Virus record (IMG/VR): IMGVR_UViG_3300014208_001203
Location: 1 to 47,734 of that record
Strand: one strand, 5' to 3'
DNA length: 47,734 nt
Origin: a virus
Taxonomy: Duplodnaviria > Caudoviricetes
The position numbers and the translations under genes are program-made. The notes under the pieces are model-generated. The model worked only from the letters and a program-made list of their open reading frames with translations. It made no database searches and had not been told where the DNA came from. Shown here piece after piece: positions 1 through 43,488 of this stretch; the stretch's first letter is position 1; each line of letters starts with the position of its first letter.

Positions 1-90
1 ATGTTGATACATTTCAAACTCTTCCTTTGTTCCATTATGCAACTTCGATTCTGCCATCGCTGCCGAAAATTTTTGTCCTGTATGTGTCAT
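1..90 (-). CDS. Hypothetical protein, N-terminal part (runs off window)
   Basis: ATG at 90, open to the window edge (MTHTGQKFSAAMAESKLH...); not in the ORF track. Confidence 0.5.
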   Translation of the reverse strand, partial: MTHTGQKFSAAMAESKLHNGTKEEFEMYQH

Positions 91-132
91 ATAATTTAAC
101 TACATTTATTTGTGACCGTTATAAACAATAAA

Positions 133-309
133 TTAAAATTGTTTACATTTTAGTCTTTTGCTAAGTTTCTTCGCCCATCGAGCAAAAGATTTTGCTTTTT
201 CTTCATCAATATTTTCTGGCTCTACCATATGTCCAGCAGTTGCTTTATTTGCTGCGTCAAACAATTTGTCAGCAAAATCTTTCACGTCTTTATCTGTAAA
301 GTTTTCCAT
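133..309 (-). CDS. Hypothetical cassette protein, 58 aa
   Basis: Hand translation MENFTDKDVKDFADKLFDAANK...KCKQF*; fills one cassette; promoter motif upstream at 374-400. Confidence 0.7.
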   Translation of the reverse strand: MENFTDKDVKDFADKLFDAANKATAGHMVEPENIDEEKAKSFARWAKKLSKRLKCKQF

Positions 310-326
310 AATTTTAATTTACATTT

Positions 327-448
327 TTATAACAACAAATATAAAACATTGCTGTCGTGGTTTCTATTTATATTATACGTTATTTTCTAAGTTTTGTTTC
401 ATTAATTTACTTCTGTGTTGCAACGTTTTATATTTGCAACCGTTATAT
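327..448. repeat. attC-like hairpin site 1
   Basis: TAAC-aa-CAAATATAAAACATTGC ... GCAACGTTTTATATTTG-caacc-GTTA (16/17 paired). Confidence 0.85.
374..400 (-). promoter_or_regulatory. AAC-N16-CGTA promoter motif inside the loop of site 1
   Basis: Minus strand GAAAC-N16-CGTATA, same as 13 other copies. Confidence 0.7.
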
Positions 449-533
449 GCAATGCTACGTTTCTGCTTCGTATTAAGTTTCATCGTAACATTCTTTTTAT
501 TTTATTTTTTCTCCCACCTCACAAATATAGTAA

Positions 534-1379
534 TTATATTTTGAATATTTTATTTATTTTAATATTATCATCATCAAATACAATAATTTCATCAGTAATA
601 CCATAACCAGTGTCAGCATCAACAATTATTACAGTATCAAATCCTTCATTATTTGCAGTTTCTAACCAGCCAACTCTATTCCAATTAGTTCCTATATTTT
701 CACCTTTTTCTGTTGTTGTATTACCAAGTTTTATATCACATTCGTAAATGTATGCAATTCCGTTATTATCTTTTAAAACAGAAGCATAATAATTAGCATA
801 TTTTAATTCTCTAAAAAAGAAAAAACCATTATCAGCACCAAGTTGTCCACTTGATTTATTTTCTCCATATCTAAATTGTTTAAATTTAAAAGAACTTGCA
901 TGATAACCTTTCATTGTTTTTTCATTTTTATTGAAATTTGGTTTTATATTATTTTTATTATCTTTATATAATTTTCTCGCTTCATCTTGAAGTTCTTTAG
1001 TATTATCCATTATAAATGTCCAATGATTACTACCATAATCTTTATCCGCAATTATCGTTTTATAATGTGCAAATGATGTAGTTCTATTTTTATAAACGGT
1101 ATTGTTATTATTATCTTTAACAATTCTACCAATAACAATTTCATCACCTTTATTTATTCTACCATAATCTTTAATTAAATTAATATCGTTTAAATAAACA
1201 TATTCTTCAACAAAATCATTTTCTTTCCATTTTCTTGCATTATCAATAAATGGTTGTAATTTAGATTTATCAAATTTATAGTTGTAATCAAAATCATTAT
1301 CTGAATTTTCCACTTGTTCATTCAAATATTCACGTATAGTAGTTGCTATAAATTTGCGTAGTTTCATATCTTTCTCCAT
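534..1379 (-). CDS. ADP-ribosyltransferase-fold-like (ART-PolyVal-like) protein with LRKFI..TIREYL leader
   Basis: YHAS..F..F, GFFFF...YA..Y, EGFDTVII, EIIVFD motifs resemble 12806..13375. Confidence 0.6.
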   Translation of the reverse strand: MEKDMKLRKFIATTIREYLNEQVENSDNDFDYNYKFDKSKLQPFIDNARKWKENDFVEEYVYLNDINLIKDYGRINKGDEIVIGRIVKDNNNNTVYKNRTTSFAHYKTIIADKDYGSNHWTFIMDNTKELQDEARKLYKDNKNNIKPNFNKNEKTMKGYHASSFKFKQFRYGENKSSGQLGADNGFFFFRELKYANYYASVLKDNNGIAYIYECDIKLGNTTTEKGENIGTNWNRVGWLETANNEGFDTVIIVDADTGYGITDEIIVFDDDNIKINKIFKI

Positions 1380-1487
1380 ATATTTTACTTTATATATAAA
1401 TATTCAAATTTTAAATTTCTTCCCACAAAAAATAAAACAAAAAGTTTCATCTCTCATATCAAAGTTTGTAGTATAAATCCGCACTGC

Positions 1488-1581
1488 ATATAACAAGGTG
1501 TATAAGAAAGTTTGCTATCAACGATAGTGGTAATTTGAAAGTTTATACAAGCAAACCTTCTCATACACCCAATCGTTAGGT
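1488..1581. repeat. attC-like hairpin site 2
   Basis: TAAC-aa-GGTGTATAAGAAAGTTTGCT ... AGCAAACCTTCTCATACACC-caatc-GTTA (18/20). Confidence 0.85.
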
Positions 1582-1591
1582 GCAATATTTT

Positions 1592-2371
1592 TTAATTTTT
1601 TTGCCACCCCACTTCGGTTTTTTCAAAACCGTTTGGAAAAAACTCGTTCATTGTTTTGCCACTTAACCACCATTGCATTGCAATCTCTCCGTTTCCATTC
1701 GTGGCACAAGTTAATTTCCATTGTGGATTTTTGCTCATTCCTTTTGTAATTGCTCGTTTAATCGCTTCATAATATTTTGGATAAAGTTCAAATTCTTTTT
1801 CTCTTGCACCTTTTCGGCTCACTAATGGGCAGCCAACGCAACCAAGTCTATTTGCTCCAGTTCCGTAATGTGGTGCAAGTTTTATTTGTTTTTCGGCAAT
1901 AAATGAATAAACATCTTTATCAGTCCAATCGTAAATTGGATAAACGTGTTGGCTTCCTTTTTGCCATTTTCTATTATCGCATTGCACGTAATCTCTATTT
2001 TGTCGGTTCTTGCTTTCAGAACTACGAACACCTTCAAACATAATTTTACCAACCGAAACGTATTCTTTCAAAAATTCACAGCAATAGCGATTTAATCTTG
2101 TTGGTAATCCTTTGCGTTCAACTAATTGATAAAATGTTTCTTTTGGTTGCATTATTACTGTGTGTGGGTAATTATCTCTAATGTGCTTTATTGTTCCAAT
2201 CGGGTCGATAGTTGTATTTGCATAAATTGAAGTATATTCGATGCCTGATTTTTGCAATAAATAATCAACTACGGCACTATCTTTACCTCCAGAATTACCT
2301 GCAAATAATGGTTTGTCGGTAGCGTTTGCAACCGTATGTATAAATTTTATTGCTTTTTCTTCTAAATTCAT
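1592..2371 (-). CDS. PAPS reductase-family (PP-loop) protein
   Basis: SGGKDS PP-loop, RYCC, GVRSSES, PIYDWT, RLGCVGCP; start moved to MNLEEKA at 2371. Confidence 0.85.
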   Translation of the reverse strand: MNLEEKAIKFIHTVANATDKPLFAGNSGGKDSAVVDYLLQKSGIEYTSIYANTTIDPIGTIKHIRDNYPHTVIMQPKETFYQLVERKGLPTRLNRYCCEFLKEYVSVGKIMFEGVRSSESKNRQNRDYVQCDNRKWQKGSQHVYPIYDWTDKDVYSFIAEKQIKLAPHYGTGANRLGCVGCPLVSRKGAREKEFELYPKYYEAIKRAITKGMSKNPQWKLTCATNGNGEIAMQWWLSGKTMNEFFPNGFEKTEVGWQKN

Positions 2372-2408
2372 TTTTATTTCCCTCCCTAAAAAATTAAAAA
2401 ATACAGAC

Positions 2409-2462
2409 ACCTAACAGCGTGTATGTTGCATTAAAACGACAACATACACGCAACCGTTAGCA
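2409..2462. repeat. attC-like hairpin site 3 (minimal)
   Basis: TAAC-a-GCGTGTATGTTG-cattaaaacga-CAACATACACGC-aacc-GTTA, perfect 12-bp arm. Confidence 0.9.
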
Positions 2463-2466
2463 AACA

Positions 2467-2682
2467 TTATTCAGTAACATTTAGAATAACTATATAATTG
2501 TCAATTGGTTTATCTGTGTTAAAATGATACCATTTATCATTCTTTCTCTCAACAGGTATTTCCCAATGTTCTATATTATTTAATCCTTTAACTAAATATC
2601 CTTTTAACATATAACGTTTGCTAACACCAGCTATATTTAATTGCTGGTTATCTGTGCTATTTAAGTTTTGTTCTTTGTTCAT
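2467..2682 (-). CDS. Hypothetical cassette protein starting inside hairpin site 4
   Basis: 71-aa ORF; QLNIAGVSKR is encoded by the arm and core of site 4. Confidence 0.7.
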   Translation of the reverse strand: MNKEQNLNSTDNQQLNIAGVSKRYMLKGYLVKGLNNIEHWEIPVERKNDKWYHFNTDKPIDNYIVILNVTE

Positions 2683-2749
2683 AATACATCTTAATTTGAT
2701 AGCTTAGTGTTTCAAAATCAGCAACTAAACATAGCTGTAAACGTTATGG
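2619..2749. repeat. attC-like hairpin site 4
   Basis: TAAC-ac-CAGCTATATTTAATTGCTGGTT ... AATCAGCAACTAAACATAGCTG-taaac-GTTA (19/22). Confidence 0.85.
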
Positions 2750-2968
2750 TCAATTGTAAAAAACCGCCTCCGTAGTCTTTACCCTTTGACCTTGAATTAA
2801 GGCATTTAATCCTATTTCATCAAATGTGGTATTCTCTGCAAATCCACTCGTGTCCATTTCTCCACTATCACACCAAATTGTAACTATCACACTTTTCGGT
2901 ATTGGATTTGTTTTAATAGGCAAAAATTTGTCTATATGTTCATTAATTTGTTCTGCTGTCCATTCCAT
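2750..2968 (-). CDS. Hypothetical cassette protein
   Basis: 72-aa ORF whose stop abuts the GTTA core. Confidence 0.65.
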   Translation of the reverse strand: MEWTAEQINEHIDKFLPIKTNPIPKSVIVTIWCDSGEMDTSGFAENTTFDEIGLNALIQGQRVKTTEAVFYN

Positions 2969-3030
2969 CGCTCAAAATATTTAATTATTACATTTTACCT
3001 CGTATCAATATTTGTGCGTAATTATCGCAC

Positions 3031-3076
3031 TGGTCATATACCTGTCCGTTATAGCACATTAAAACGATGCTATAAC
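3031..3076. repeat. Orphan right half-site followed by an empty cassette
   Basis: tgtcc-GTTATAGCA-cattaaaacga-TGCTATAAC; no matching left arm found upstream. Confidence 0.75.
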
Positions 3077-3318
3077 AGCAAATATATTTAATTTTAAAAA
3101 TTTGGAACTGTCACTACAATTGGATATTTCTTCGGTTTATTGGCTGAAAAAAATTTACTTTCAGTCATATATTTACCAATCCATTGTTTAGTTCTATCTT
3201 CAACAATTTCATTAAATGCTCTATATTTTAGAACATCAAGTAAATTTTCTTCTGTTATTTTAATTGCCCATTTCATAATAAAATTTTTAAAACTATAATA
3301 TATTTGCAACCGTTAGCA
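3070..3318. repeat. attC-like hairpin site 6 with a gene in its loop
   Basis: GCAAATATATTTAATTTTAAAAATTT (3078-3103) pairs with 3281-3307, then aacc-GTTA. Confidence 0.8.
3094..3276 (-). CDS. Hypothetical protein, 60 aa, between the arms of site 6
   Basis: MKWAIKITEENLLDV...; ATG at 3276. Confidence 0.6.
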   Translation of the reverse strand: MKWAIKITEENLLDVLKYRAFNEIVEDRTKQWIGKYMTESKFFSANKPKKYPIVVTVPNF

Positions 3319-3322
3319 TCAA

Positions 3323-3502
3323 TTACCACATAAAACTATTACATTTTTCACAGTACCGTTGTTTGCCAAATATACTTTTTTTACTATGTTCTTCTTGTGT
3401 GCAATGTGGTAACTGTTCGCTTCGCACACTAACATCAGATAACAACAATTTTTCAGTGCTATTATCAATGTTTTTTGTTAATTTTTTACTTTTGTTTTTC
3501 AT
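3323..3502 (-). CDS. Hypothetical 59-aa protein with CxxC, starting inside hairpin site 7
   Basis: Hand translation MKNKSKKLTKNIDNSTEKLLLSDVSVRSEQL...YCEKCNSFMW*. Confidence 0.6.
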   Translation of the reverse strand: MKNKSKKLTKNIDNSTEKLLLSDVSVRSEQLPHCTQEEHSKKSIFGKQRYCEKCNSFMW

Positions 3503-3544
3503 ATTAAAATTCGTTTAAACTGCTGTTATCTGTGACCGTTATAC
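3427..3544. repeat. attC-like hairpin site 7
   Basis: TAAC-at-CAGATAACAACAATTT ... AAACTGCTGTTATCTG-tgacc-GTTA (14/16). Confidence 0.8.
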
Positions 3545-3561
3545 ACAATTGCTTTTTATAT

Positions 3562-3588
3562 TATACGTAAATAATTAGATTTTGTTAC
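3562..3588 (-). promoter_or_regulatory. AAC-N16-CGTA promoter occupying an ORF-less cassette body
   Basis: GTAAC-N16-CGTATA between cores 3538 and 3605. Confidence 0.7.
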
Positions 3589-3598
3589 GAGCAAATGT

Positions 3599-4502
3599 GC
3601 ATAACAGCAAATATAACCAATGCTGTCAGTGCTTCGTAGCAAGATTTGCACAAGTTTTACCATAATTTTTATTTTTTTGCCCACGCACTTCAGTTTTTTC
3701 AAAACTGTTAAAGTTTACAATAAATGCGTCCAAAAGCTCAATGGAGAACCATGATAAAAAGTAGTTTCACATTCATTATTATATTTACCATTAATGGTTT
3801 TTGTTATTTCACCATCTTTGTATATTTCTACTTTAACAATATTTTCTACTGGAATATTTTTTAAACATATTTCACTATATCCACCATATTGTTCTTGTAT
3901 ACTTGACCATTCTAAGGGAGATAGTAGTGATAAATCGTCTTTTTTTATATATGTAAGCAACACATCCACTTCTTTTAAATTTGGCTCTTCACTAAAACCA
4001 CATCCGTTTAAAAACTCCTTAGTTAAATTTGTTAGTTCATGTTCTGAGTAATCTTCTTCATTCCACTCCCTTTTATATTGTTTCAAATCATCAATTATTT
4101 CATCTTTATATCCAGAAATCCAAATATCACCACCAAAATGTTTATTTACATTATCCAAACAAACATAAAACAAAACACCATTTTTTATTGGATGTCTGTA
4201 TGCATGTGCCGCTGATGTTTGCCCATTTGCATATGCACTTGCATATGATTTTGATATGGATAAATATACCAAATTTAAACCAAACCCAGTACTTCTTGAT
4301 ATATTTGGCTTAATTTTTAATTTGCCAAATTCTTCTCTAATTAATTTACGTATAAAATCTTCTTGTTTTGTAATCATAATATCCAGTTTTTTATATATAA
4401 ATATTAAAAAATTAAAAATCCACCCTAAAAAATAAAAATTATTAGTGTAGTGTTTCAATCAAACATTTGTGGTAGCACTGGTTATATTTACAACCGTTAT
4501 GT
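3599..4502. repeat. attC-like site 8 with an ~850-bp gene-containing loop
   Basis: GCAAATATAACCAATGCT (3607-3624) pairs with AGCACTGGTTATATTTAC (4474-4491), 16/18. Confidence 0.75.
3715..4377 (-). CDS. Hypothetical protein with FIRKLIREEF leader, possibly ART-like
   Basis: Start moved to MITKQ at 4377; VYLS...YA..YA and C-terminal FYHGSP. Confidence 0.65.
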   Translation of the reverse strand: MITKQEDFIRKLIREEFGKLKIKPNISRSTGFGLNLVYLSISKSYASAYANGQTSAAHAYRHPIKNGVLFYVCLDNVNKHFGGDIWISGYKDEIIDDLKQYKREWNEEDYSEHELTNLTKEFLNGCGFSEEPNLKEVDVLLTYIKKDDLSLLSPLEWSSIQEQYGGYSEICLKNIPVENIVKVEIYKDGEITKTINGKYNNECETTFYHGSPLSFWTHLL

Positions 4503-4506
4503 GGCA

Positions 4507-4704
4507 TTAAGCACCACGCAACTTTTCGCCTCTCATGTCATCACAATTTTTTCTACCCCACTCAAGCACTTCCTCGTATGCTTTTTTCATATTTGGTTTT
4601 GCTTCATCATACACTTCTGCATTTTGATAACATCTACTACTTAACCCACAGAATATACGATAAAGTCCTTCTGCTGTTTCCTTGTCAAATTTTAATTCTT
4701 CCAT
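4507..4704 (-). CDS. Hypothetical cassette protein, 65 aa
   Basis: MEELKFDKE...; fills the cassette between cores 4496 and 4724. Confidence 0.65.
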   Translation of the reverse strand: MEELKFDKETAEGLYRIFCGLSSRCYQNAEVYDEAKPNMKKAYEEVLEWGRKNCDDMRGEKLRGA

Positions 4705-4717
4705 AATAATTAACGCC

Positions 4718-4839
4718 ACATAACAACGTGTATAAAACATTGCCTTTCGTGGTCTTTTTTAAGTTTATACTAATTTTATAATTTTGTTCATTTTATTAAG
4801 TTCTGTGTTGGCAACGTTTCATACACGCAACCGTTATAC
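4718..4839. repeat. attC-like hairpin site 9 (last in array)
   Basis: TAAC-aa-CGTGTATAAAACATTGCC ... GGCAACGTTTCATACACG-caacc-GTTA (16/18); loop resembles site 1. Confidence 0.85.
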
Positions 4840-5882
4840 ACAACATCCTTCTTTTTTTAAAATTTTAATGTTTTTATAAATTACTGATTCGCTCAAACCA
4901 GTTATTTTAATCAACTCCTTTACAGAAATACCTTTTTTATAATAAAGCTTGCAAATGTTTAAATTTTTTTTACAATTTTCTTTTTGGGATAATTTTTCAA
5001 ATGATATATTATTCCACTTTCTTTTTAAAATAGGAAGTTTTAAATTAATAGCCAAATTTTTAATATATTTTGTAATTTCTATATCAGTTACATGACAAGA
5101 CACTAAATTTCCATCATAATACGGAGTATAAATCTTATTAAATTTATCAGTAAAAGGACTTAACATTTTTATTATGTTTTCCTCCCAATTCTTGTGTACT
5201 TTAATTGTAATATAACCCCTTTTATTTATAGAACCATCTCCATCAATAAACCCTATTGCAATTGGAACTAATTCATCTTTTGTTAGTTTGTTAAAATCAC
5301 AAGGAACATAAGTTTTGTTGTGATTTATTTTAAATTTTTTATATAAAAAATCCCATATTTCTCTAATTCCAACATACAAACTTGGTTTAGTCAAGTGTAA
5401 TTTATAAATTTTGCTAATTTTTTTAAATGTTTAAAATCTTTTATTGCTAAATTAATTTGTAGTTGTTTGCTTTTTTCATTAAAATGACCATCTGCTAAAC
5501 AAAATCCAATCCAATATAAACTTTCATTTGAACCGTTTATTAATTTGAATGGATTGGAAAAAGATTCTGATTCACGTTTTAACTTAAAACAAAATGCTTT
5601 TTGTTGAATTGCACTCCAAGATCTTCCTAATTTTTTTACAAAATCATCAACATTACCTTTTTTATAATTCTCTTTCAAATATTTTATCTCCTGAGTTTTC
5701 CATATTTTTTGTTCCCCATTTTTATGATTTACTTTAATTCTTTTTATTCCAAGTTTTGATGCTCTGCTCTGAATTCCAATCCACGTTCTTTGCAAGTGAC
5801 TTATTAAATCTTTTTTATTTAAAGATTCGTAATTTTCAAACAAAAAATCATCTTCTTCTTTTTTCCAAATTGTTTTTTCCAT
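4834..5882 (-). pseudogene. LAGLIDADG endonuclease split into two ORFs (5391-5882 and 4834-5394)
   Basis: YWIGFCLADG in the first ORF and IGFIDGDG in the second; both motifs are in one ORF in paralog 11867..12646. Confidence 0.65.
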
Positions 5883-5943
5883 ATATCTATATTTTTTATA
5901 TAAATATATGTAAATTTGGGAAATTATGAAAAAAATCATATTA

Positions 5944-6387
5944 TCATCTACTTTCATTAATTTCTCTGTCTATTTCTTTAATTTTTAAACTCATTTTTTT
6001 GTCGAAAAGTTTTTTTCCTTTAGCCAGGGCTATTCCAAGCTTAATTAAACCTTTGTCATTAACAAATATTTTCGTAGGGACAATTGTAAAACCTTTTTCT
6101 TGTGTTTTGCTTTTTAGTTTTTTAATTTCTCTTTTAGTAAGAAGAAGTTTTCTATCTCTCTTTGGCTCATGCTGATCATAGCTTGAGTTTTTATATTCAG
6201 AAACGTGAATGTTTTTTACAAAAACCTCACCATCCTTAATATAACAATAAGCATCAGTAAAACTTACGGCCCCGTTCCTAATTGACTTCACTTCTGATCC
6301 AACCAGCGCTATTCCAGCCACAAATTCTTCTATAAAAAGAAATTCAAAGCTGGCCTTTTTATTCTTTATGCTAATATTATTTTTCAT
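5944..6387 (-). CDS. smpB: SsrA-binding protein SmpB
   Basis: NKKA, AGIALVGSEVKSIR, H.P.RDRKLLL.KREI, LAKGKKLFDK motifs. Confidence 0.95.
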   Translation of the reverse strand: MKNNISIKNKKASFEFLFIEEFVAGIALVGSEVKSIRNGAVSFTDAYCYIKDGEVFVKNIHVSEYKNSSYDQHEPKRDRKLLLTKREIKKLKSKTQEKGFTIVPTKIFVNDKGLIKLGIALAKGKKLFDKKMSLKIKEIDREINESR

Positions 6388-10662: not shown

Positions 10663-11862
10663 TTAAATCATCTTTTTAATTTGTTTAACAATTTCATTAA
10701 TCATATCTTTTTCATTGGTTATAATTTCAAAGTCTGGATTTGTTAACTTAAATTTATATGTAATATATCTTTGCCCTTCGAACCCTTTATCTGCACCAAC
10801 TATAATTTTAACATATTTTTGTTGTGATTTTGTCCACCACTCTGATATTTCCCACCTAGTTGTTTGAGCAAAGCTTCTTCCTTCAATTTTTTCAACTTCT
10901 TTTGCCAACCAAAACACTATTATTCCTTGTTTAGATGCTTTTTCTAAATATTCACTTTCCCAATTTACTTGTTCTTCGTAAACAAAATCTTTTTTACTAA
11001 ATTCTCCTAACCTTTTTGGACAGACCAAAATTATATTTTTATTTGTTTTTACATTTTTCAATCCTTCTTGAATCTTCTCTAAAAAGTTTTCATGCCAATT
11101 TGCGCCTTGAATTGGTCCTGCTAAAAACACAACAATGTCTTGGTTTTCTTCAAATGTAGATACTTTATATTGTTCTGGAGCTCTTAAAACCTGCACTGTT
11201 CCGACCCTGTGTTTAATGTTTGAAATCAACTCGCCAACAAAAACGTTTTGATCATAATGAACTCTAATTCCGTTCATTTGAAATTTAATTAGTTCTTCAG
11301 AAACGGGAGTAAAATGCCAAATATCTACGCCAACATTTACAGAATTCCTTTGAACTTTCCATAGCCCATGAATATGTCCAACAATATTAAACACATTTTC
11401 TTTTGCATTGGTTGGAAAATGGTTCAAGTACACTTTTTCTCCACCAATTTCAATTTCCAACTCATCATAAACTTCATCGAAATATTTTAACAACATTTTG
11501 TCGTTAATTTCAAAATTTGCTGTTCCTCCATTTTCTTTCGAAATATCGTAATTTCCTTTAATTAATATTTTTTTACCATTTAACTGATTTAAAATATCTA
11601 AACCATCTTTGTCCATCGATATGTCTCCCAAGAAATATGTCAAATCATTTTTCCCAACGGTTTTATTAAATACATCTTTTAGGTGTTCATTAACTTCTTT
11701 TTCGTTTTTAAAGATTAAATCACGACCATATAAGTTTAATCTATTATCGTTTATATGCCAGTCACTTGTAAAGAATATTTTTCTTTTACTTTTTTGTTCT
11801 TCTAACATTTTTTCCCGAATTTGTTTTTTTACAATTTCTACAACTTGCAATATTGTTTTCAT
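10663..11862 (-). CDS. Calcineurin-like metallophosphoesterase fused to a nucleoside 2-deoxyribosyltransferase-like domain
   Basis: SDWH, LGD, GNYD, GHIH; C-terminal VFLAGPI...QVNWE. Confidence 0.8.
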   Translation of the reverse strand: MKTILQVVEIVKKQIREKMLEEQKSKRKIFFTSDWHINDNRLNLYGRDLIFKNEKEVNEHLKDVFNKTVGKNDLTYFLGDISMDKDGLDILNQLNGKKILIKGNYDISKENGGTANFEINDKMLLKYFDEVYDELEIEIGGEKVYLNHFPTNAKENVFNIVGHIHGLWKVQRNSVNVGVDIWHFTPVSEELIKFQMNGIRVHYDQNVFVGELISNIKHRVGTVQVLRAPEQYKVSTFEENQDIVVFLAGPIQGANWHENFLEKIQEGLKNVKTNKNIILVCPKRLGEFSKKDFVYEEQVNWESEYLEKASKQGIIVFWLAKEVEKIEGRSFAQTTRWEISEWWTKSQQKYVKIIVGADKGFEGQRYITYKFKLTNPDFEIITNEKDMINEIVKQIKKMI

Positions 11863-11866
11863 ATTT

Positions 11867-12646
11867 TTATTTTTTTAAATTATTATTTTTTATAAAATTA
11901 CTTAATGTTGAAGGTCTTAAATTTAGTTCTTGACAAATTTCTTTATTTTTTTTACCACTTTCTAATAAGTGTATAATTTTTATTTTGTTTTTTTGTGCCT
12001 TTTCATTTCTGCTAATAAAATTTAAATCAATTTTATCCCACTTTCTTTTCATAAAAGGAATATTTAGAGAAATCGCCTTTCTTTTTATTCCTTTTAAGAC
12101 AACTGAATTTGATATGGCAAATTCTGCATATCCACACCCATTAATTCTTGCACTTGGCAATTTAAAAGTAAAATCCTTATATAACACTTCTAAAAAATAT
12201 TTTAATTGGCTTAACCAACTTGAATGGCATTTTACTCTTAAATTACAGTCTTTTCTTTCGTGCAAAGTGGTTATACAGCCATCTCCATCTATGAATCCAA
12301 TTATTAAACTAAATATTTTATCACATTCTTTTATAGAAGTTAAATTAGGAGGACAATACGTTTTATTACTTCCAATATCATATAATTTTGTTATTCTATC
12401 AAAAATTAAAGAGTCTCTCCCTCCTATTCTAAAAGATTTAGTTTTTTTGTTGTAAGATATGTTTTCAATATTTAAAAAATCTTTTAATTTTAACAGGTGT
12501 TGCTTGTCTTTTTTAGACAAAGCTATTACAATTTCTTTAGTACTTTTAAAGCTTGCATCTGCAAGTAAAAATCCGAGCCAATAATATTTTTCTAAATTTT
12601 CATCTAATAATTTCTCAAAATTACATTTTTTATTATTTTTTGCCAT
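11867..12646 (-). CDS. LAGLIDADG homing endonuclease
   Basis: YWLGFLLADA and IGFIDGDG motifs, C-terminal HTH-like tail. Confidence 0.85.
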   Translation of the reverse strand: MAKNNKKCNFEKLLDENLEKYYWLGFLLADASFKSTKEIVIALSKKDKQHLLKLKDFLNIENISYNKKTKSFRIGGRDSLIFDRITKLYDIGSNKTYCPPNLTSIKECDKIFSLIIGFIDGDGCITTLHERKDCNLRVKCHSSWLSQLKYFLEVLYKDFTFKLPSARINGCGYAEFAISNSVVLKGIKRKAISLNIPFMKRKWDKIDLNFISRNEKAQKNKIKIIHLLESGKKNKEICQELNLRPSTLSNFIKNNNLKK

Positions 12647-14651: not shown

Positions 14652-15707
14652 ATGAATAAAATTAGAAAAATAATTCAAGAAAAAGTGCATGTTGTTCTTG
14701 AAATTAAAGAAATCGTAAAAAAACTTGCTCCATATTATATGAAAGAATTTTATAAAATGGTGCCCAATATAATTGAATATAAACAAAAAACATATTGGAC
14801 TACAATTCCTGTTTCTGAATTATATCTATCCAACAATGCTTTTGTAAATGAGCTAATGATTACAATATATTTCCACAAAGAATCAACTGAAAATGTCGAA
14901 AACATTGTTAGTGGTCAATTTTCTGAAGAAAGCATAGATCAAGAAATTGTTGATGGAATTGTTAAGTATAACGGTGCAATAAATTTAAGAATACACAATT
15001 GGGATTATAAAACAAACTTAGAAGAACATTTAAAAAGTGTGTTCTCTCATGAATTACATCATTTTTTTGATGATATTGTGACATTTAACAAAAAGAAAAC
15101 AACAAAAATTTTAAACTCTGTCAATAGAATGACATCAAATTTCTCTTTAGAATTATTAAATAAATATCCAACACTAAAAGATTTCACAGAAATATTCTAT
15201 TTAAATCTTCCAAAAGAAAGAAACGCAAGACTTACTCAGCTGTCTGTAGAGGCAGATAAATACAAAGGGAAACCAATAGATTTTGTAATAGAACAGCTTG
15301 GACACTTAACTGCATTTAAAGATTTCCAAAGAATGGATAAATTTGATGCTAATAACCTAAAAAACATTCCATATAATGACAGAAAGCAATTCATTGATTC
15401 TTTTAATCTATCTTTAAACTATTCTAAAAACACCATGAATATTTCCTCAGAAGATCAAAATTACCCCAAAGAACCAGATAAATTCTTTGAATTTTGGCAA
15501 AGACAATTTAACAAAAATGCAAAAGTGTTATTTAAAAAATCCATTAACATAGCAAAATTTTTAAGCAAAGAAAAAATTAATGAGAACCACATTAATTTAT
15601 TAGAAACAAAATTAAATTCTACTTCATTAGAAATACTTTTCAATTATGGTTTGGATAATATAGGCATAGAAAAGAATACACACTCTGACCGAATTAAATT
15701 TAAATAA
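14652..15707 (+). CDS. HExxH putative zinc metallopeptidase, paralog 3
   Basis: HELHHFFDDI, IFYLNLPKERNAR; start moved to MNKIRK. Confidence 0.65.
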   Translation: MNKIRKIIQEKVHVVLEIKEIVKKLAPYYMKEFYKMVPNIIEYKQKTYWTTIPVSELYLSNNAFVNELMITIYFHKESTENVENIVSGQFSEESIDQEIVDGIVKYNGAINLRIHNWDYKTNLEEHLKSVFSHELHHFFDDIVTFNKKKTTKILNSVNRMTSNFSLELLNKYPTLKDFTEIFYLNLPKERNARLTQLSVEADKYKGKPIDFVIEQLGHLTAFKDFQRMDKFDANNLKNIPYNDRKQFIDSFNLSLNYSKNTMNISSEDQNYPKEPDKFFEFWQRQFNKNAKVLFKKSINIAKFLSKEKINENHINLLETKLNSTSLEILFNYGLDNIGIEKNTHSDRIKFK

Positions 15708-15710
15708 AAC

Positions 15711-15857
15711 ATGAAAAATATAGAATTAACAAATCCAGTTGTTGAACCAGATAAAAAAACAAAAGAACCACAAACCCCAACCGTTCCACATAGAAAAAGA
15801 AAGTTGGTTCCAGATAAGTGGCCAGAGGAAACACCAGGACCAAAACCAAAAGCATAA
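15711..15857 (+). CDS. Small Pro/Lys-rich protein, 48 aa
   Basis: Hand translation MKNIELTNPVVEPDKKTKEPQTP...PGPKPKA*; fills the gap between neighbours. Confidence 0.5.
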   Translation: MKNIELTNPVVEPDKKTKEPQTPTVPHRKRKLVPDKWPEETPGPKPKA

Positions 15858-15861
15858 AGAA

Positions 15862-17190
15862 ATGGCAATGAACATAGAAGATCCTGAATTTGATGAACCT
15901 CATCCATCAGTCAGAAGTGGAATCGAAGGTGGAAAAAAAACTGCCTTTTCAGATTCTGAGTTTTTTAAAGGAGGAGATCCCGATTATTCAACTTTAGAAA
16001 AAATAGGAAGCGAAGAGTTTAATAAAATCATTAGAGATATTAAACCATTGGGAAAAATGAACACAATGGAAATAATGAAAGCTTTTCAATTTATGTCATC
16101 AATAGAAATGCAGCATAAAGAGGCTTTAGAATCTTTGGCAATTAGAAAAATAAAAGAACAATTTGGTCTTCCAGATGAAGTTTCTGATAAATTAGAAGCT
16201 AAATTGGTTAGACAAGTTAATAAACCAAGTAACGATACAGACAATTTAACTCAGGAAGTAGCTCAAGATTTACAATTTACAGAAGAAGAAAAAGAAATTA
16301 TAAAAAAACATGTAGAAAAAAGAAAAATTCAAAATGCTTTAATTATAGGGTCGGGTTTTCGAGCACATTCTACATTTATGTCTATAAAAAAAGAATTAGA
16401 TGCTATTGATCAAAGATTGTATCCATTATATGAAAAAACAATGCCAAATGTTGCTTTATTTATGTGGAAATACCCATTTGAAGATGTGATGGGATCAGCA
16501 CAAATGATGGGTCTTTCTAAACTGAAAAAAGACGAAAACAACAATGTAAAAGCTGAAGCTGTGGCAACAATATTTCCAATTCTTTTACACGAAACACCAA
16601 AAGCTGCAATAGAACTTTTGTTTGCAAATTATTTAATTAGTCTTACAGAAAGATTTGGTGCAAACGTATCTTCTGAAATAATAAAACAATCAGATGTTTT
16701 TGAAGAAGAAATATGGCATAAACGTATTGGGCCAACTCTTTGGAAATATTTACACGATGCTATTGATTATGTAATTGTTCATGAAAAAGAAAGTAATTAC
16801 ACACTGGTTGCATATTTACTTAACGATATCTCAATGATGGAACCAAATGAATTTATAAGTTTTATGAACGATTTAGTTTATAATGGACAGAAAGCAATAA
16901 ACAACATTAGCCAAATGGTTGACAACATCGAAAGAGATTTATCATCTGAAGAAGCTGTTCCAGAAGAAACAGATGAGGAAAATCTTAATACAACCACACA
17001 ACAATTAGGAGATGAATTATCTCAATTGTCACAAGCAGCCGCAGAAAAACAAGAAACAACAGTAAATACTCCAAAAAACTTTGAAGATATGTATTTAATA
17101 GAACTTCAAGACGAACTTAAATCTGCTGTTTCCGAAGAAAGATATGAGGATGCCTCTAAGCTAGTTAAAATAATTAAAACAAAAACATAA
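15862..17190 (+). CDS. Hypothetical protein with C-terminal UVR-like coiled coil
   Basis: Likely start MAMNIED; FPILLHE motif; ELKSAVSEERYEDASKL tail. Confidence 0.7.
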   Translation: MAMNIEDPEFDEPHPSVRSGIEGGKKTAFSDSEFFKGGDPDYSTLEKIGSEEFNKIIRDIKPLGKMNTMEIMKAFQFMSSIEMQHKEALESLAIRKIKEQFGLPDEVSDKLEAKLVRQVNKPSNDTDNLTQEVAQDLQFTEEEKEIIKKHVEKRKIQNALIIGSGFRAHSTFMSIKKELDAIDQRLYPLYEKTMPNVALFMWKYPFEDVMGSAQMMGLSKLKKDENNNVKAEAVATIFPILLHETPKAAIELLFANYLISLTERFGANVSSEIIKQSDVFEEEIWHKRIGPTLWKYLHDAIDYVIVHEKESNYTLVAYLLNDISMMEPNEFISFMNDLVYNGQKAINNISQMVDNIERDLSSEEAVPEETDEENLNTTTQQLGDELSQLSQAAAEKQETTVNTPKNFEDMYLIELQDELKSAVSEERYEDASKLVKIIKTKT

Positions 17191-41022: not shown

Positions 41023-41343
41023 TCAAGTAAATTCATAGACATCATTGTCGTTTATAATTTTTGTTGTAAATGGAAAATCGTCTTCTGGAACTTTTTTTAT
41101 AGTTTCCATTAGTAATTTAGCAATGGAAAAAGCAACATATTTCTTATCATCAACACTAATTTGTAACCACAAACAATTATCACTTCCTTTTTCAGGATAT
41201 TTAGAAGGTTTAATGTGATAGGCATGAATTGTTATTTCAGTGTTTAAAATCTTTGCAAGTCTTATTTTTTCTCCTACAAATTTTGTAGATGTTGATTTTA
41301 TTCCTAAATCTGAAAATTTTTTAATTATTTTTTGTTGTTGCAT
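41023..41343 (-). CDS. DGR-associated hypothetical protein (candidate accessory factor)
   Basis: 106 aa, overlaps the RT stop; predicted beta-rich, unlike helical Avd. Confidence 0.65.
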   Translation of the reverse strand: MQQQKIIKKFSDLGIKSTSTKFVGEKIRLAKILNTEITIHAYHIKPSKYPEKGSDNCLWLQISVDDKKYVAFSIAKLLMETIKKVPEDDFPFTTKIINDNDVYEFT

Positions 41344-42289
41344 TTAATAGTTTATTAGTTAAATTTATACAATCTCCGTGCTTTAACCATCCAATATATG
41401 ATGCTACAGAAGTTTTGTTTTGTTTGTTTTTTAACATATATACAAAATTTTTTTTTATTCTTTTTCTAATTTTTACATGAGTGTGAAAAAATACATATCC
41501 TAAAAAATCAACACCTCTCGATTGTACTGGGTATATTTGATAATTTTTCTTAAGGCGTAATTTTAAATTATCAAATAAATATTTTTTTATATCTAACAAT
41601 AGTAAATGAAGAAATTTCTTATTACCAGAAAAAAACACCATATCATCAGCATATCTAAAATAATATTTAACATTTTTTACTTCTTTAATCCAATGATCAA
41701 AATAACTCAAATAAAAATTTGAAAAATATTGAGATAAATAATTTCCTATTGGCAAACCAATAGCACTATCAATAATTTCATCAAGTAAAAGCAACAACTC
41801 TTTATCTTTAAATTTTCGTCTTAAAAGAATTTTTAGAGTTTTGTTATCTATGTTTGGATAAAATTTCTCGATATCAATTTTAAGACAATAAACAGTTTCA
41901 CTTTCATCTCGTAAAGACTCTTTTATTTTTTTAACTGCTGAATGAATTCCTCTTCCTTTTATAGAACTATATGTATCAGCAGTAAACGTAGATATAAATA
42001 TTGGTTTTAACACATTCATAACAGCATGATGTAATATCCTGTCAGGAAAATATGGTAATCTATAAACTATTCTTTCTTTTGGTTCAAAAATTTTAAATGT
42101 TATATAATTTGATGTTTTATATGTTTTACCTTTTAATTGACAATGTAAAATTCTTATGTTTTCCAATCTATTCTCATCATGTTTTTTAACACATGGTTGT
42201 TTTAACTTTCCTTTGCGTGCATTTTTGTCTGCTAATTCTAAATTTTCAACACTTATTATTTTTTGGTACAAATTGCCAATCCTTTTCAT
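41321..42289 (-). CDS. DGR reverse transcriptase
   Basis: MKRIGNLY, FEPKER, PDRILHHA, GLPIGNYLSQ (DGR-type SQ), RYADD, VDFLGY. Confidence 0.95.
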   Translation of the reverse strand: MKRIGNLYQKIISVENLELADKNARKGKLKQPCVKKHDENRLENIRILHCQLKGKTYKTSNYITFKIFEPKERIVYRLPYFPDRILHHAVMNVLKPIFISTFTADTYSSIKGRGIHSAVKKIKESLRDESETVYCLKIDIEKFYPNIDNKTLKILLRRKFKDKELLLLLDEIIDSAIGLPIGNYLSQYFSNFYLSYFDHWIKEVKNVKYYFRYADDMVFFSGNKKFLHLLLLDIKKYLFDNLKLRLKKNYQIYPVQSRGVDFLGYVFFHTHVKIRKRIKKNFVYMLKNKQNKTSVASYIGWLKHGDCINLTNKLLNATTKNN

Positions 42290-42400
42290 TATATGCCTTT
42301 GCTTAAAAAGTCATCTTCTTATTAAATACCAATGCCTTTTATTTAAAATTTATTTTTTACCATCTTGGTAAGGTTCATGCTGATTAAAGATTTTAATTTT

Positions 42401-42491
42401 GCATAGATGAGAAGTGGAAGTCGCATTCGCATTCGAATTATTGTAATTCGTATTGTTGAAAACGAAACCCGAACCCGCAGAGAACACCACC
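42401..42491 (-). repeat. DGR template repeat (TR)
   Basis: Non-coding, AAY-rich (would read VVFSAGSGFVFNNTNYNNSNANATSTSHLC); 20 adenines. Confidence 0.95.
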
Positions 42492-42513
42492 GCTTTTCAG
42501 CATACAACCAATT

Positions 42514-43002
42514 TTATTTTAGATCAATCAATTCATTTTCTATATCAATAAATTTTTCGCAAGCATCTTTGGCAAACTCTGCATTTTTAAAGCAAAGGCG
42601 AGAAGCGGAAGCCGCAAGCGCAATCGAAGAATTGTAACGCGCATTGACGAAAACGAAACCCGAACCCGCAGAGAACACCACCACTGGATAATAACGATTT
42701 TCTCCAATTTTTGGCAACCAACCTTCATTATAAACTTTTGCAATTCTCATTTTTTTAATAAAAGCTTTTATAACTTTTATTTCCTCTTTTCCAAATCCTG
42801 GAACTTTAACGACCAGAGAGTCGTCATCACAATCTACTCCAAGAGCATCACAGATATCTTCATAATTTTGTATTTTATCTGTTATCTTTTTTGGAACAAA
42901 AAACTCTTTTCCGAAATTTTCTTCAAGCATTTCTTTAAATTCTTGTGCAGCTGTCGGATATAACCTCAACGCCGCTTCTTCGCTCATTTTTAATGTTTTC
43001 AT
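42514..43002 (-). CDS. DGR target protein 1
   Basis: Contains VR1, ending ...ASRLCF. Confidence 0.9.
   Translation of the reverse strand: MKTLKMSEEAALRLYPTAAQEFKEMLEENFGKEFFVPKKITDKIQNYEDICDALGVDCDDDSLVVKVPGFGKEEIKVIKAFIKKMRIAKVYNEGWLPKIGENRYYPVVVFSAGSGFVFVNARYNSSIALAASASRLCFKNAEFAKDACEKFIDIENELIDLK
42592..42682 (-). repeat. Variable repeat VR1
   Basis: 91-nt ungapped match to TR; 14 of 15 mismatches at TR adenines. Confidence 0.95.
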
Positions 43003-43032
43003 TTTTTTATTGTTGATTTAAAAATTAATTTG

Positions 43033-43488
43033 TTACATAATAAAGTCTTTATATTCTTGTAAAAAATAAGTTGCAGCGTGTTTTGCCAACTCCTCAGTTT
43101 TAAAGCAAAGGCGAGAAGCGGAAGCCGCACCCGCAAACGAATTATTGTAACCCGCATTGACGAAAACGAAACCCGAACCCGCAGAGATATAAAACCATGC
43201 AAAGTAACGATATTCATCTGGATTCATATTAAAAACATAATCTTCATTTAAAACTTTCGTAATAAATTTTAATTTTTTATAAGCCTTTTCGTCCACAGTA
43301 TCTTTTTTATTAAAAATACTGTTTGATTTAACCTTCTTTAGTTCACAGGCATCTTTAAAAGACTTAACCATATCCATAATTGATTTTGGTTTGTTTTTTA
43401 ATTCTAACGCTTCAATTTTTTTGCGTATTTTATCTACATTTTCTACTGCGAATTTTAATTCTTTTTGTAATTTTAATTTTGTTTCCAT
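43033..43488 (-). CDS. DGR target protein 2
   Basis: Paralog of target 1, contains VR2. Confidence 0.9.
   Translation of the reverse strand: METKLKLQKELKFAVENVDKIRKKIEALELKNKPKSIMDMVKSFKDACELKKVKSNSIFNKKDTVDEKAYKKLKFITKVLNEDYVFNMNPDEYRYFAWFYISAGSGFVFVNAGYNNSFAGAASASRLCFKTEELAKHAATYFLQEYKDFIM
43105..43187 (-). repeat. Variable repeat VR2
   Basis: 83-nt match to TR; 13 of 14 mismatches at TR adenines. Confidence 0.95.

Follow-up and report, generated by a model that had tools for sequence, protein, structure and literature searches.

The window analysed here, the complete 47,734-nucleotide stretch of the Caudoviricetes record IMGVR_UViG_3300014208_001203, carries near its left end a series of minus-strand genes set between imperfect inverted repeats. 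An earlier note had counted by hand that about 17 of 19 mismatches in these stems are A·C on the plus strand, i.e. G·T wobbles on the minus strand, and had proposed that only the minus strand is selected to fold. This raises the question of which molecule folds, and what the folded strand is used for.

Between positions 331 and 4835 the window contains eight complete inverted-repeat sites, which on the plus strand follow the pattern TAAC-N2-arm...arm'-N5-GTTA, and paired ends are recognisable in eight inter-site segments. All cassettes, hairpin sites and half-sites are given on the minus strand, and by comparison with relatives we place the likely cassette boundary at G^TT. At the left end lies a half-site (97..121), the right portion of a hairpin site that is truncated by the contig start; no left partner was found within 1-88. 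Cassette 1 (119..442) comprises a 58-aa ORF (133-309) and the hairpin site 331..444, in which inner position 13 and the two spacer pairs are A·C. Cassette 2 (443..1575) combines a 281-aa ORF (534-1379), which has no match in Pfam or PHROG, with the site 1492..1577, a member of a widespread family with an 80-nt body and with A·C at inner positions 8 and 13. Cassette 3 (1576..2456) harbours a PAPS-reductase-domain ORF (1592-2410, PF01507), the only one of the nine array ORFs named by Pfam and PHROGs, and the short hairpin site 2413..2458, with a 40-nt body. The 71-aa ORF of cassette 4 (2457..2743; ORF 2467-2682) starts within the loop of site 2623-2745. Cassette 5 (2744..3048) is damaged, with a 72-aa ORF (2750-2968) and an orphan right arm at about 3027-3050; a closing end and a left half-site were searched for and neither was found. 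The following cassette (3049..3312) is role-swapped, i.e. its ORF (3094-3309) is placed within site 3074-3314, in the inner loop, and the 29-nt outer segment (3048-3076), with a standard 11-nt loop, is empty. A cassette with decayed ends (3313..3538; 59-aa ORF 3323-3502, site 3431-3540) precedes a second role-swapped one (3539..4496), in which a 247-aa ORF (3715-4458) occupies the inner loop of about 850 nt of site 3603-4498 and the outer segment (3538-3605) has no gene. The last cassette (4497..4833) carries a 77-aa ORF (4507-4740) and the final site of the array, 4722-4835; no convincing closing end was found within 8 kb beyond it, the best candidate matching 8/10 at 10689. In the best-matching sequencing run (contigs only) the cover is low to the right of 4873, to which we attach no meaning; none of the displayed joints stems from that run, and those seen in other runs belong to relatives. 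The contig is a fragment (13% complete), no tRNA or tmRNA was found in the window, and a blastn search of the array against annotated phages returned one uncultured 462-kb phage and three chance-level matches.

We then quantified the mismatches. In fixed windows covering eight sites and eight end pairs, the plus strand shows 184 Watson-Crick pairs, 19 A·C or C·A, no G·T and 13 other mismatches in 216 pairs (nominal P=1e-5). With Watson-Crick-only extension (seven sites and eight end pairs) the count is 13 A·C, 1 G·T and 12 others in 232 pairs, which departs from a composition null of 0.547 with P=0.003. The hand count is confirmed in its direction and approximate size, 19 against 0 in the fixed windows; its denominator is not, as it omits the 12-13 non-wobble mismatches, which lie mostly within AT-rich or decayed stems. 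All eight window sites have A·C as their first spacer pair, and 13 of the 19 A·C mismatches fall on three fixed positions, inner 13 (6), inner 8 (3) and outer 11 (4), so that they do not represent 19 independent events and the P values overstate their independence. The minus strand gives the more stable fold at 7/7 sites with RNA and DNA parameters alike. The plus strand also folds well at three of seven stretches (z -3.8, -5.5 and -3.5); Watson-Crick covariation keeps both strands foldable. Selection on the folded minus strand is supported, but its restriction to that strand only is an overstatement, given that both strands fold and that a subfamily of the sites conserves the opposite mismatch.

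To see the bias in a larger set we collected 311 viral and 39 bacterial sites, in which it is kept at the same positions. The sites, which occur also in large phages, consist of two 11-nt arms flanking an asymmetric centre, 6 nt long on one side and 9 nt on the opposite one. G·T is usual at arm position 10, in both arms, and at the first pair of the centre. Among unique pairs, A·C is found at inner position 13 in 140/166, at the first spacer pair in 177/182 and at outer position 11 in 99/140, and at several other positions in only 0-2/182. With seed-matching sites left out, A·C exceeds G·T by 214 to 12 (57 to 6 with one site per family). Position 13 is Watson-Crick in only 14/140, which argues that a wobble is favoured there over perfect pairing. 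The bias takes the form of a fixed positional code and does not reflect scattered, tolerated wobbles. The inner arms pair without gaps over 16 positions, and the only regular bulges are the central one (3-4 nt) and one base next to the short-family loop; in the window six of eight sites have no extrahelical base in the inner arm; judged by eye, the decayed site at 3074 and the short site are the exceptions. At variable positions the pairing rate is 83-99% compared with 30-40% for shuffled partners, rates inflated by the pairing-based search through which the sites were collected, which does not inflate the strand bias. Double-sided changes number 57, compared with 17.0±3.4 expected.

Exchange at these sites can be followed in isolates of the Polaribacter phage Freya. 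Comparing Freya_5, _6, _8 and _9 with Freya_10 (all short-read assemblies), the differences are junctions at GTT, the centre remains with the inner arm, and cassettes vary at an attI-like site. The unit gained or lost in relatives extends from GTT to GTT with the hairpin at its right. An attC-like role of the folded minus strand is supported. Across relatives, the end type is linked to the right hairpin (67/306 pairs versus a 4.2% background) and not to the left one (21/306 versus 4.9%). Homologues of cassette 2 are found in other array contexts and also directly at attI-like sites; the left hairpin of the window accompanies 0/10 of them and the right hairpin family 7/12. As the remaining 5/12 have another right hairpin body, cassette 2 is not a fixed unit over longer times. 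Clustering of near-identical cassettes among viral loci gave one informative pair.

Could the same pattern arise in double-stranded DNA? Four half-sites might be read in the duplex or in an extruded cruciform, the A/G difference at arm position 10 serving as a left/right direction signal. Sites of the dif type have an 11-6-11 arrangement, which the present layout resembles; the polarity, A left and C right, is nearly always kept at fixed positions; and one subfamily retains the opposite mismatch at position 4 (14/39 bacterial and 36/311 viral sites). Against this, partner arms separated by 11 to about 850 nt covary at positions that are free for any base, and the bias remains when positions 8 and 13 are removed (51 versus 12; 21 versus 6 per family). 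Furthermore, differing centres are poorly tolerated in a two-strand exchange between duplexes, and the recombining Freya partners have unlike centres. It had been argued that a double-stranded palindromic binding site would not give such a bias; we put this more cautiously and regard a double-stranded reading of the fixed A/G difference as unlikely. A cruciform and a free single strand leave the same signature in sequence alone.

The minus strand is also the coding strand of the window, and the earlier note had left open whether the folded molecule is single-stranded DNA or RNA. If the stems were structures of the cassette mRNA, acting in processing, translation control or as an RNA intermediate, coding strand and G·T strand should coincide. 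They do so in the window and in 332/369 viral segments; RNA parameters favour the minus-strand fold at all seven sites, and some ORFs begin within site loops. A search for inverted genes in viral arrays offered no contrast, all 152 clear cases lying on one strand. In Bacteroidota chromosomal arrays, however, 28/34 gene-bearing segments are coded on the A·C-bearing strand. The bacterial sites have A·C at position 13 on the same strand in 33/39 and G·T in none, so that the sense strand carries A·C at position 13 in 23/28 segments and at outer position 11 in 22/26. The GC skew is reversed at 37/39 bacterial sites with unchanged mismatch polarity. Since genes and skew flip and the G·T strand stays constant, the bias tracks the geometry of the site and not the mRNA, and the repeats are likely single-stranded DNA hairpins. 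The RNA reading is further countered by gains and losses that locate to GTT in DNA, by an Rfam covariance-model search of the array (including Flavo-1) without a match at E<=1, and by terminator-like sites at the expected frequency in 1-5000 (1 versus 1.2). Of the two molecules proposed, DNA is therefore retained; RNA structures are very improbable as the basis of the repeats and are rejected as the cause of the bias, and a secondary RNA effect may exist in phage arrays.

No recombinase homologue was found on this contig. In relatives it is a tyrosine recombinase of about 270 aa without the integron I2 domain; examples are the Freya_10 integrase QQV91304.1 and a 268-aa protein of locus L187. 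Using tblastn on fetched DNA it was detected in 40/132 viral arrays, always (40/40) on the left side and on the minus strand, and 54/132 arrays showed no such gene although their left flank extends over at least 3 kb, in a tally that counts overlapping loci repeatedly. The relatives have a simple, non-hairpin attI-like site some 40-55 nt ahead of the start codon of the recombinase; it was scored at 42-54 nt, with a cassette end after it, in 16/31 loci, the other 15 being unscored as an earlier chance GTT was picked or the site was unclear. One Bacteroidota-centred phylum search revealed close homologues in 70/201 sampled genomes, and arrays in 11/60 flanking loci. On a plasmid, tet(X3) is flanked by a related recombinase and a half-site, hinting that it may formerly have been carried by this cassette system.

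These proteins bear on whether the array is an ordinary integron remnant (CALIN) under a canonical IntI. AAC/GTT triplets, the G^TT crossover and an excess of G·T on the strand that recombines are all typical of attC sites, and HattCI scored one family member, P12002L_attC1, as an attC site. The I2 region, however, comprises 34 residues in the relatives' recombinase compared with 81 in VchIntIA, and an I2-sized insertion is absent from all 102 recombinase homologues of the fetched loci (spacing 53-63 in 90/102; the 12 outliers are pattern artefacts). Three of three recombinases score below the TIGR02249 integron-integrase cut-off (150-159 bits versus 265), and the best profile and structure matches are XerA/XerC/XerD-like. 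Of six phage sites tried with IntI1, P12002L_attC1 alone failed to be integrated, in one assay. An ordinary remnant thus has very little probability. A compositional or mutational strand bias, the latter through deamination of the exposed or coding strand, is the least credible explanation and is rejected: the minus strand is G-rich along the entire window and strongly skewed DNA surrounds 112/140 viral sites, but the null amounts to 0.547 for the window and to 0.38 for site loops, the excess is concentrated at a few positions, and the bias is kept under reversed skew and gene strand, given correct orientation of the 39 bacterial sites.

Taken together, the repeats are likely recombination sites that work in the form of folded single-stranded DNA within an integron-like cassette array, and a compact Xer-type tyrosine recombinase would likely cut them on the minus (G·T) strand. 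Tyrosine recombinases cleave at the 5' edge of the centre. Because of this, and as the Freya gains and losses lie exactly at GTT, the cut is placed on the G·T strand, presumably at its TAA^C. Exchange would then involve one strand, and replication would resolve the junction. The fixed G·T pairs, which are A·C on the opposite strand, may mark the strand for use, a role that flipped-out bases and the I2 domain play in true integrons. The recombinase of this phage itself may be encoded past the left contig end. As the arms are equivalent and either loop can hold a gene, exchange at the second junction could join gene modules to standard hairpin bodies, which, if true, would be a route for making new cassettes. 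On this tentative reading the system might represent a second, I2-free integron chemistry and a living missing intermediate, in which a plain Xer-type enzyme acts on symmetric single-stranded DNA dumbbells and the G·T code specifies strand and direction.

A literature search found no published description of these sites. The small genes are set between wobble-marked hairpins that would serve to swap cassettes, as in integrons but without an I2 domain. Escudero et al. 2016 (PMC4792948) describe folded attC sites and the I2 domain as a chicken-and-egg problem for which intermediate forms are expected; folded, strand-marked sites beside an I2-less enzyme bear on it. Phage Freya is cultured with a known host (Polaribacter HaHaR_3_91), and its cassette gains and losses between isolates make the mechanism testable. 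Standard attC models may overlook or misassign these sites, a case in point being P12002L_attC1. It belongs to the short-site family, its loop is identical to that of window site 2413-2458, and the G·T strand corresponds to what is annotated as its bottom strand; in the available part of Qi et al. 2023 (PMC9892861) it is handled as a canonical attC, with mention of neither the site family nor its own recombinase.

Among known systems, rAID-1 of Bacteroidales is described by Ross et al. (bioRxiv 10.1101/471110) as a XerD-like recombinase by a gene array with intergenic repeats 'reminiscent of integrons'. The criteria given there are a recombinase >44% identical to BF9343_RS08045, located 5' of at least two co-directional genes, and cargo GC <=41%. 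By layout, bacterial loci with this site family, such as L297, L304, L307, L308 and L309, likewise have the recombinase 5' of co-directional genes, whereas it lies 3' in 40/40 viral cases. The GC of 27-32% over 1-5000 is within that range, but the whole contig is equally AT-rich; that text, as far as accessible, states no site structure, strand or crossover. With Xer/dif the arrays share the 11-6-11 layout and the XerA/XerC/XerD-like enzyme; here, however, one of the partners is single-stranded and folded, its centre is unequal, and the sites delimit cassettes that are mobile.

For integrons we compared with Nivina et al. 2016 (PMC5027507), Escudero et al. 2016 and the VchIntIA structure (PDB 2a3v). 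In both systems folding sites with an AAC/GTT triplet and G^TT crossover bound a cassette array, a simple site lies beside the recombinase (seen here in relatives), and transcription of the recombinase (in phage loci) points away from the array. In both, the 5' arm of the favoured strand holds the longer central strand and G·T pairs are in excess on it (1.24 versus 0.39 per attC site; Nivina et al. 2016). In contrast to integrons, the recombinase of about 270 aa has no I2 region, the extrahelical bases of the L arm are replaced by fixed G·T pairs and a central bulge of 3-4 nt, the cassette ends pair over 10-15 nt compared with 7, and either loop may hold genes. Integron cassette genes lie on the top, non-recombining strand, as in 28/34 bacterial segments but not in the window, and those of the phage arrays lie on the folded strand and are read toward the recombinase. 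The array is thus an integron-like system with its own site grammar, and not a canonical integron.

The window record is the entire 47,734-base virus entry (about 13% complete) and encodes SmpB, an ATP-dependent ligase, RecD2, an ECF-type sigma factor and a reverse transcriptase, a gene set that makes it likely a piece of a large phage. The array spans bases 1-4835, continuing past the left contig end, and its longer ORFs lie without exception on the minus strand. On the plus strand the sites read TAAC, 2 nt, arm, loop, complementary arm, 5 nt and GTTA. Complete sites lie at 331-444, 1492-1577, 2413-2458, 2623-2745, 3074-3314, 3431-3540, 3603-4498 and 4722-4835, and orphan right half-sites end at 121 and 3051. 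The segments between sites start with GTTA and finish with TAAC, their ends pairing across 5-16 nt. With the fixed mismatch as register, outer and inner arms come out at 11 nt each, around an unequal centre whose two sides have 6 and 9 nt. The window and 88 viral loci together (89 sequences) contain 180 stems with the 2/5 spacing; four other offsets yield 5-15, another two 67 and 63, and the 2/6 spacing is a genuine variant. A second recurring motif, a T-run followed by a C-rich stretch, is found near cassette ends (1583-1633, 3660-3709), with likenesses at about 500, 1415, 2370, 4410 and 4545, and is common to unrelated cassettes (repeat families D2-D4).

Fixed windows over all eight sites contain 19 A·C or C·A, no G·T and 13 other mismatches in 216 pairs, which bears out the claim of the earlier note that plus-strand stem mismatches are mainly A:C, i.e. 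G·T wobbles on the minus strand. Watson-Crick-only extension (7 sites and 8 end pairs) covers 232 pairs, among which 13 mismatches are A·C, a single one is G·T and 12 are of other kinds (P=0.003, composition null 0.547). All eight sites have A·C at the first spacer pair; as three positions hold 13 of the 19 A·C mismatches these are not independent. With RNA and DNA parameters alike the minus strand gives the stabler fold in 7/7 sites; the further claim that only this strand is selected to fold is too strong, since the plus strand folds far better than shuffled sequence at three of seven stretches.

The bias persists in a larger set. From 247 viral loci, collected by three pattern scans, a strand-neutral finder returned 730 sites (650 within arrays) versus 13 in shuffled loci. 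Variable arm positions are 83-99% paired, compared with 30-40% with shuffled partners; the finder selects on pairing, which inflates such rates but not the strand bias. Among 182 unique arm pairs, A·C occupies the first spacer pair in 177, inner position 8 in 61 and inner position 13 in 140 of 166, as well as outer position 11 in 99 of 140. Across the inner arm, mismatches of the A·C or C·A kind total 264, those of the G·T or T·G kind 19, and all others 92. Removal of seed-matching, short-loop and window sites leaves 140 pairs with 214 versus 12, and one pair per single-linkage family (38 families, the largest of 95 pairs) gives 57 versus 6. Leaving out positions 8 and 13 lowers these counts to 51 versus 12 and 21 versus 6, respectively. 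Watson-Crick pairs make up just 14/140 at position 13, where the wobble is therefore favoured over a perfect pair. The opposite mismatch at position 4 (36/311 viral and 14/39 bacterial sites) counts against a clean rule. In 13 short sites, hairpins with a 40-nt body (12 of 22 listed, picked for distinct arms, and one from phage P12002L), double-sided changes number 57 versus 17.0±3.4 expected, with two G·T pairs constant throughout.

The bias had been attributed either to a single-stranded DNA hairpin or to an RNA structure. Of 369 segments in viral arrays, 332 encode the gene on the G·T strand, the one favoured for folding, 5 encode it on the opposite strand and 32 are unclear; gene strand and G·T strand are thus confounded there. 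For bacterial arrays, a Bacteroidota-centred phylum sample of 201 genomes was searched with a phage recombinase (70 matches at E<=1e-40), and 60 flanking regions were scanned. Arrays occur in eleven of these and comprise 39 unique sites, versus 0 in shuffled loci. Here the gene lies on the strand opposite G·T in 28/34 segments (3 reverse, 3 unclear). Position 13 is nevertheless A·C in 33/39 sites and G·T in 0, the spacer pair A·C in 38/39 and outer position 11 in 22/26. This constant polarity despite flipped genes, and despite a local GC skew reversed at 37/39 sites, shows that the G·T strand goes with site geometry, not with mRNA or skew. Single-stranded DNA is thus likely the right alternative, while an RNA structure is contradicted. 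Strand composition as the full explanation fails, as the bias is kept where the skew is reversed.

The recombinase, a tyrosine recombinase of about 270 aa, is present in cultured flavobacterial phages (tblastn). Cultured phages of known host bearing this array include the Freya isolates (L263, L316-L323), Danklef_5 (L265) and P12002L (L262), in which methyltransferase genes sit between sites. The Polaribacter phage Freya isolates (44.0-48.9 kb; six of ten compared as short-read assemblies, with Freya_10 as reference) are identical outside junctions within the compared stretches. Freya_9 lacks the first 307-nt cassette and Freya_5 lacks 3.2 kb, in place of which Freya_6 carries a different unit of 472 nt; Freya_8 lacks 902 nt, with its junction at a record boundary, and in Freya_1 one side of the junction is visible. 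Every Freya junction is positioned at GTT, and the central bases remain with the inner arm. The words cassette, deletion and insertion are absent from the main text of the Freya genome paper.

Homologues of window cassette 2 (443-1575) were compared at 24 loci. The window's left hairpin occurs in 0/10 with a recognisable left end, several adjoining plain attI-like sequence, and the right hairpin family is the same in 7/12 with a right end and different in 5/12. Overall, end type is tied to the right hairpin (67/306 pairs, background 4.2%) and not to the left (21/306, background 4.9%). In two loci (L367, L372) the same cassette start recurs after the hairpin right of the homologue, suggesting tandem copies. 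As tyrosine recombinases cleave where the centre begins at its 5' side, an exchange point at G^TT in the plus strand would place the cut at TAA^C in the minus strand. We infer that the cut strand is probably the G·T strand, a conclusion that makes no use of the wobbles.

The short site's 11-nt loop has an inner context in 83 cases, an outer one in 21 and an unclear one in 7; after 8 of the 21 outer ones comes an inner loop spanning 214-488 nt with an ORF of at least 51 aa. In two such role-swapped units of the window (3049-3312 and 3539-4496), the inner loop contains the gene, and the outer segment is minimal or empty. Together with five swapped right-hairpin bodies among the cassette-2 homologues, they suggest that the excised cassette may be a symmetric dumbbell whose second junction, more speculatively, might be exchanged now and then.

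No recombinase homologue was found on the 47,734-base contig. With overlapping loci counted more than once, the fetched DNA of 40/132 viral arrays contains one, in 40/40 on the left side and minus strand, while 54 have none despite a flank of at least 3 kb and in 38 the flank is shorter; the gene of the window phage, if any, would accordingly be expected beyond the contig end. The recombinases (265-277 aa) fall short of the score thresholds of both integron-integrase and Xer models, and the stretch that takes up 81 residues in VchIntIA takes up 34 in them; an insertion the size of I2, the integron-integrase-specific domain, occurs in 0/102 homologues. Of 31 loci, 16 were scored as having a non-hairpin attI-like site 42-54 nt ahead of the start codon and a cassette end after that site (the other 15 being unscored); ATA precedes the 6-nt centre in 14/16. 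Bacterial loci (L297-L314) show two layouts: a recombinase upstream of and co-directional with the array, rAID-1-like and with frames of ~345-455 aa in several, or a recombinase of ~280 aa divergent from it, as in classical integrons. The plasmid recombinase 'tnpF' beside tet(X3)/tet(X5) (FJ012881, 6052-8200; NZ_CP044520, 4516-6537) is 47% identical to the phage enzyme over residues 43-268. By eye, tet(X3) has a GTTA end on one side and an apparent left half of a family site on the other (the finder reports no full site), and so may be a captured first cassette. On a Chryseobacterium plasmid (L387), the genes lined up downstream of the recombinase include an IS110 transposase and a group II intron reverse transcriptase (15507-16823).

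Elsewhere in the window, 41023-43488 (minus strand) is likely a diversity-generating retroelement, judged by its reverse transcriptase (PF00078, phrog_1423) with a small downstream ORF, and a template-like copy (~42400-42490) shared by two tandem target ORFs (42514-43002, 43033-43488) that by eye differ from it mainly where the template has A; an Rfam RT-17 match (42289-42375) is weak, under the gathering score. No tmRNA was found on the contig, although SmpB is encoded. ORFs of the SmpB region lie at 4834-5957, 5944-6387 and 11867-12646; those flanking SmpB resemble homing-endonuclease remnants by motif, and 5391-5957 has PHROG endonuclease matches.

A literature search, mostly outside subscription journals, returned no description of site grammar, strand or crossover, and the portions available of PMC9723704 and bioRxiv 2025.10.29.685425 contain nothing on these sites. 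rAID-1 arrays adjoin a XerD-like gene (Ross et al., bioRxiv 10.1101/471110); our comparison covers the text of that report, whose motif figure and supplements may show this site. Of six phage sites assayed with IntI1, P12002L_attC1 alone failed to integrate (Qi 2023, PMC9892861); it is a short-family member with the same loop as the window's, and the strand annotated as its bottom strand is the G·T one. A G:T excess in attC bottom strands has been described (Nivina 2016, PMC5027507), so that the wobble bias as such is already known for integrons; the available text of that paper makes no mention of fixed wobble positions. The I2/attC paradox has been stated by Escudero 2016 (PMC4792948). The array works like an integron, but by the I2 and extrahelical-base tests it is an integron-like system outside the integrons.
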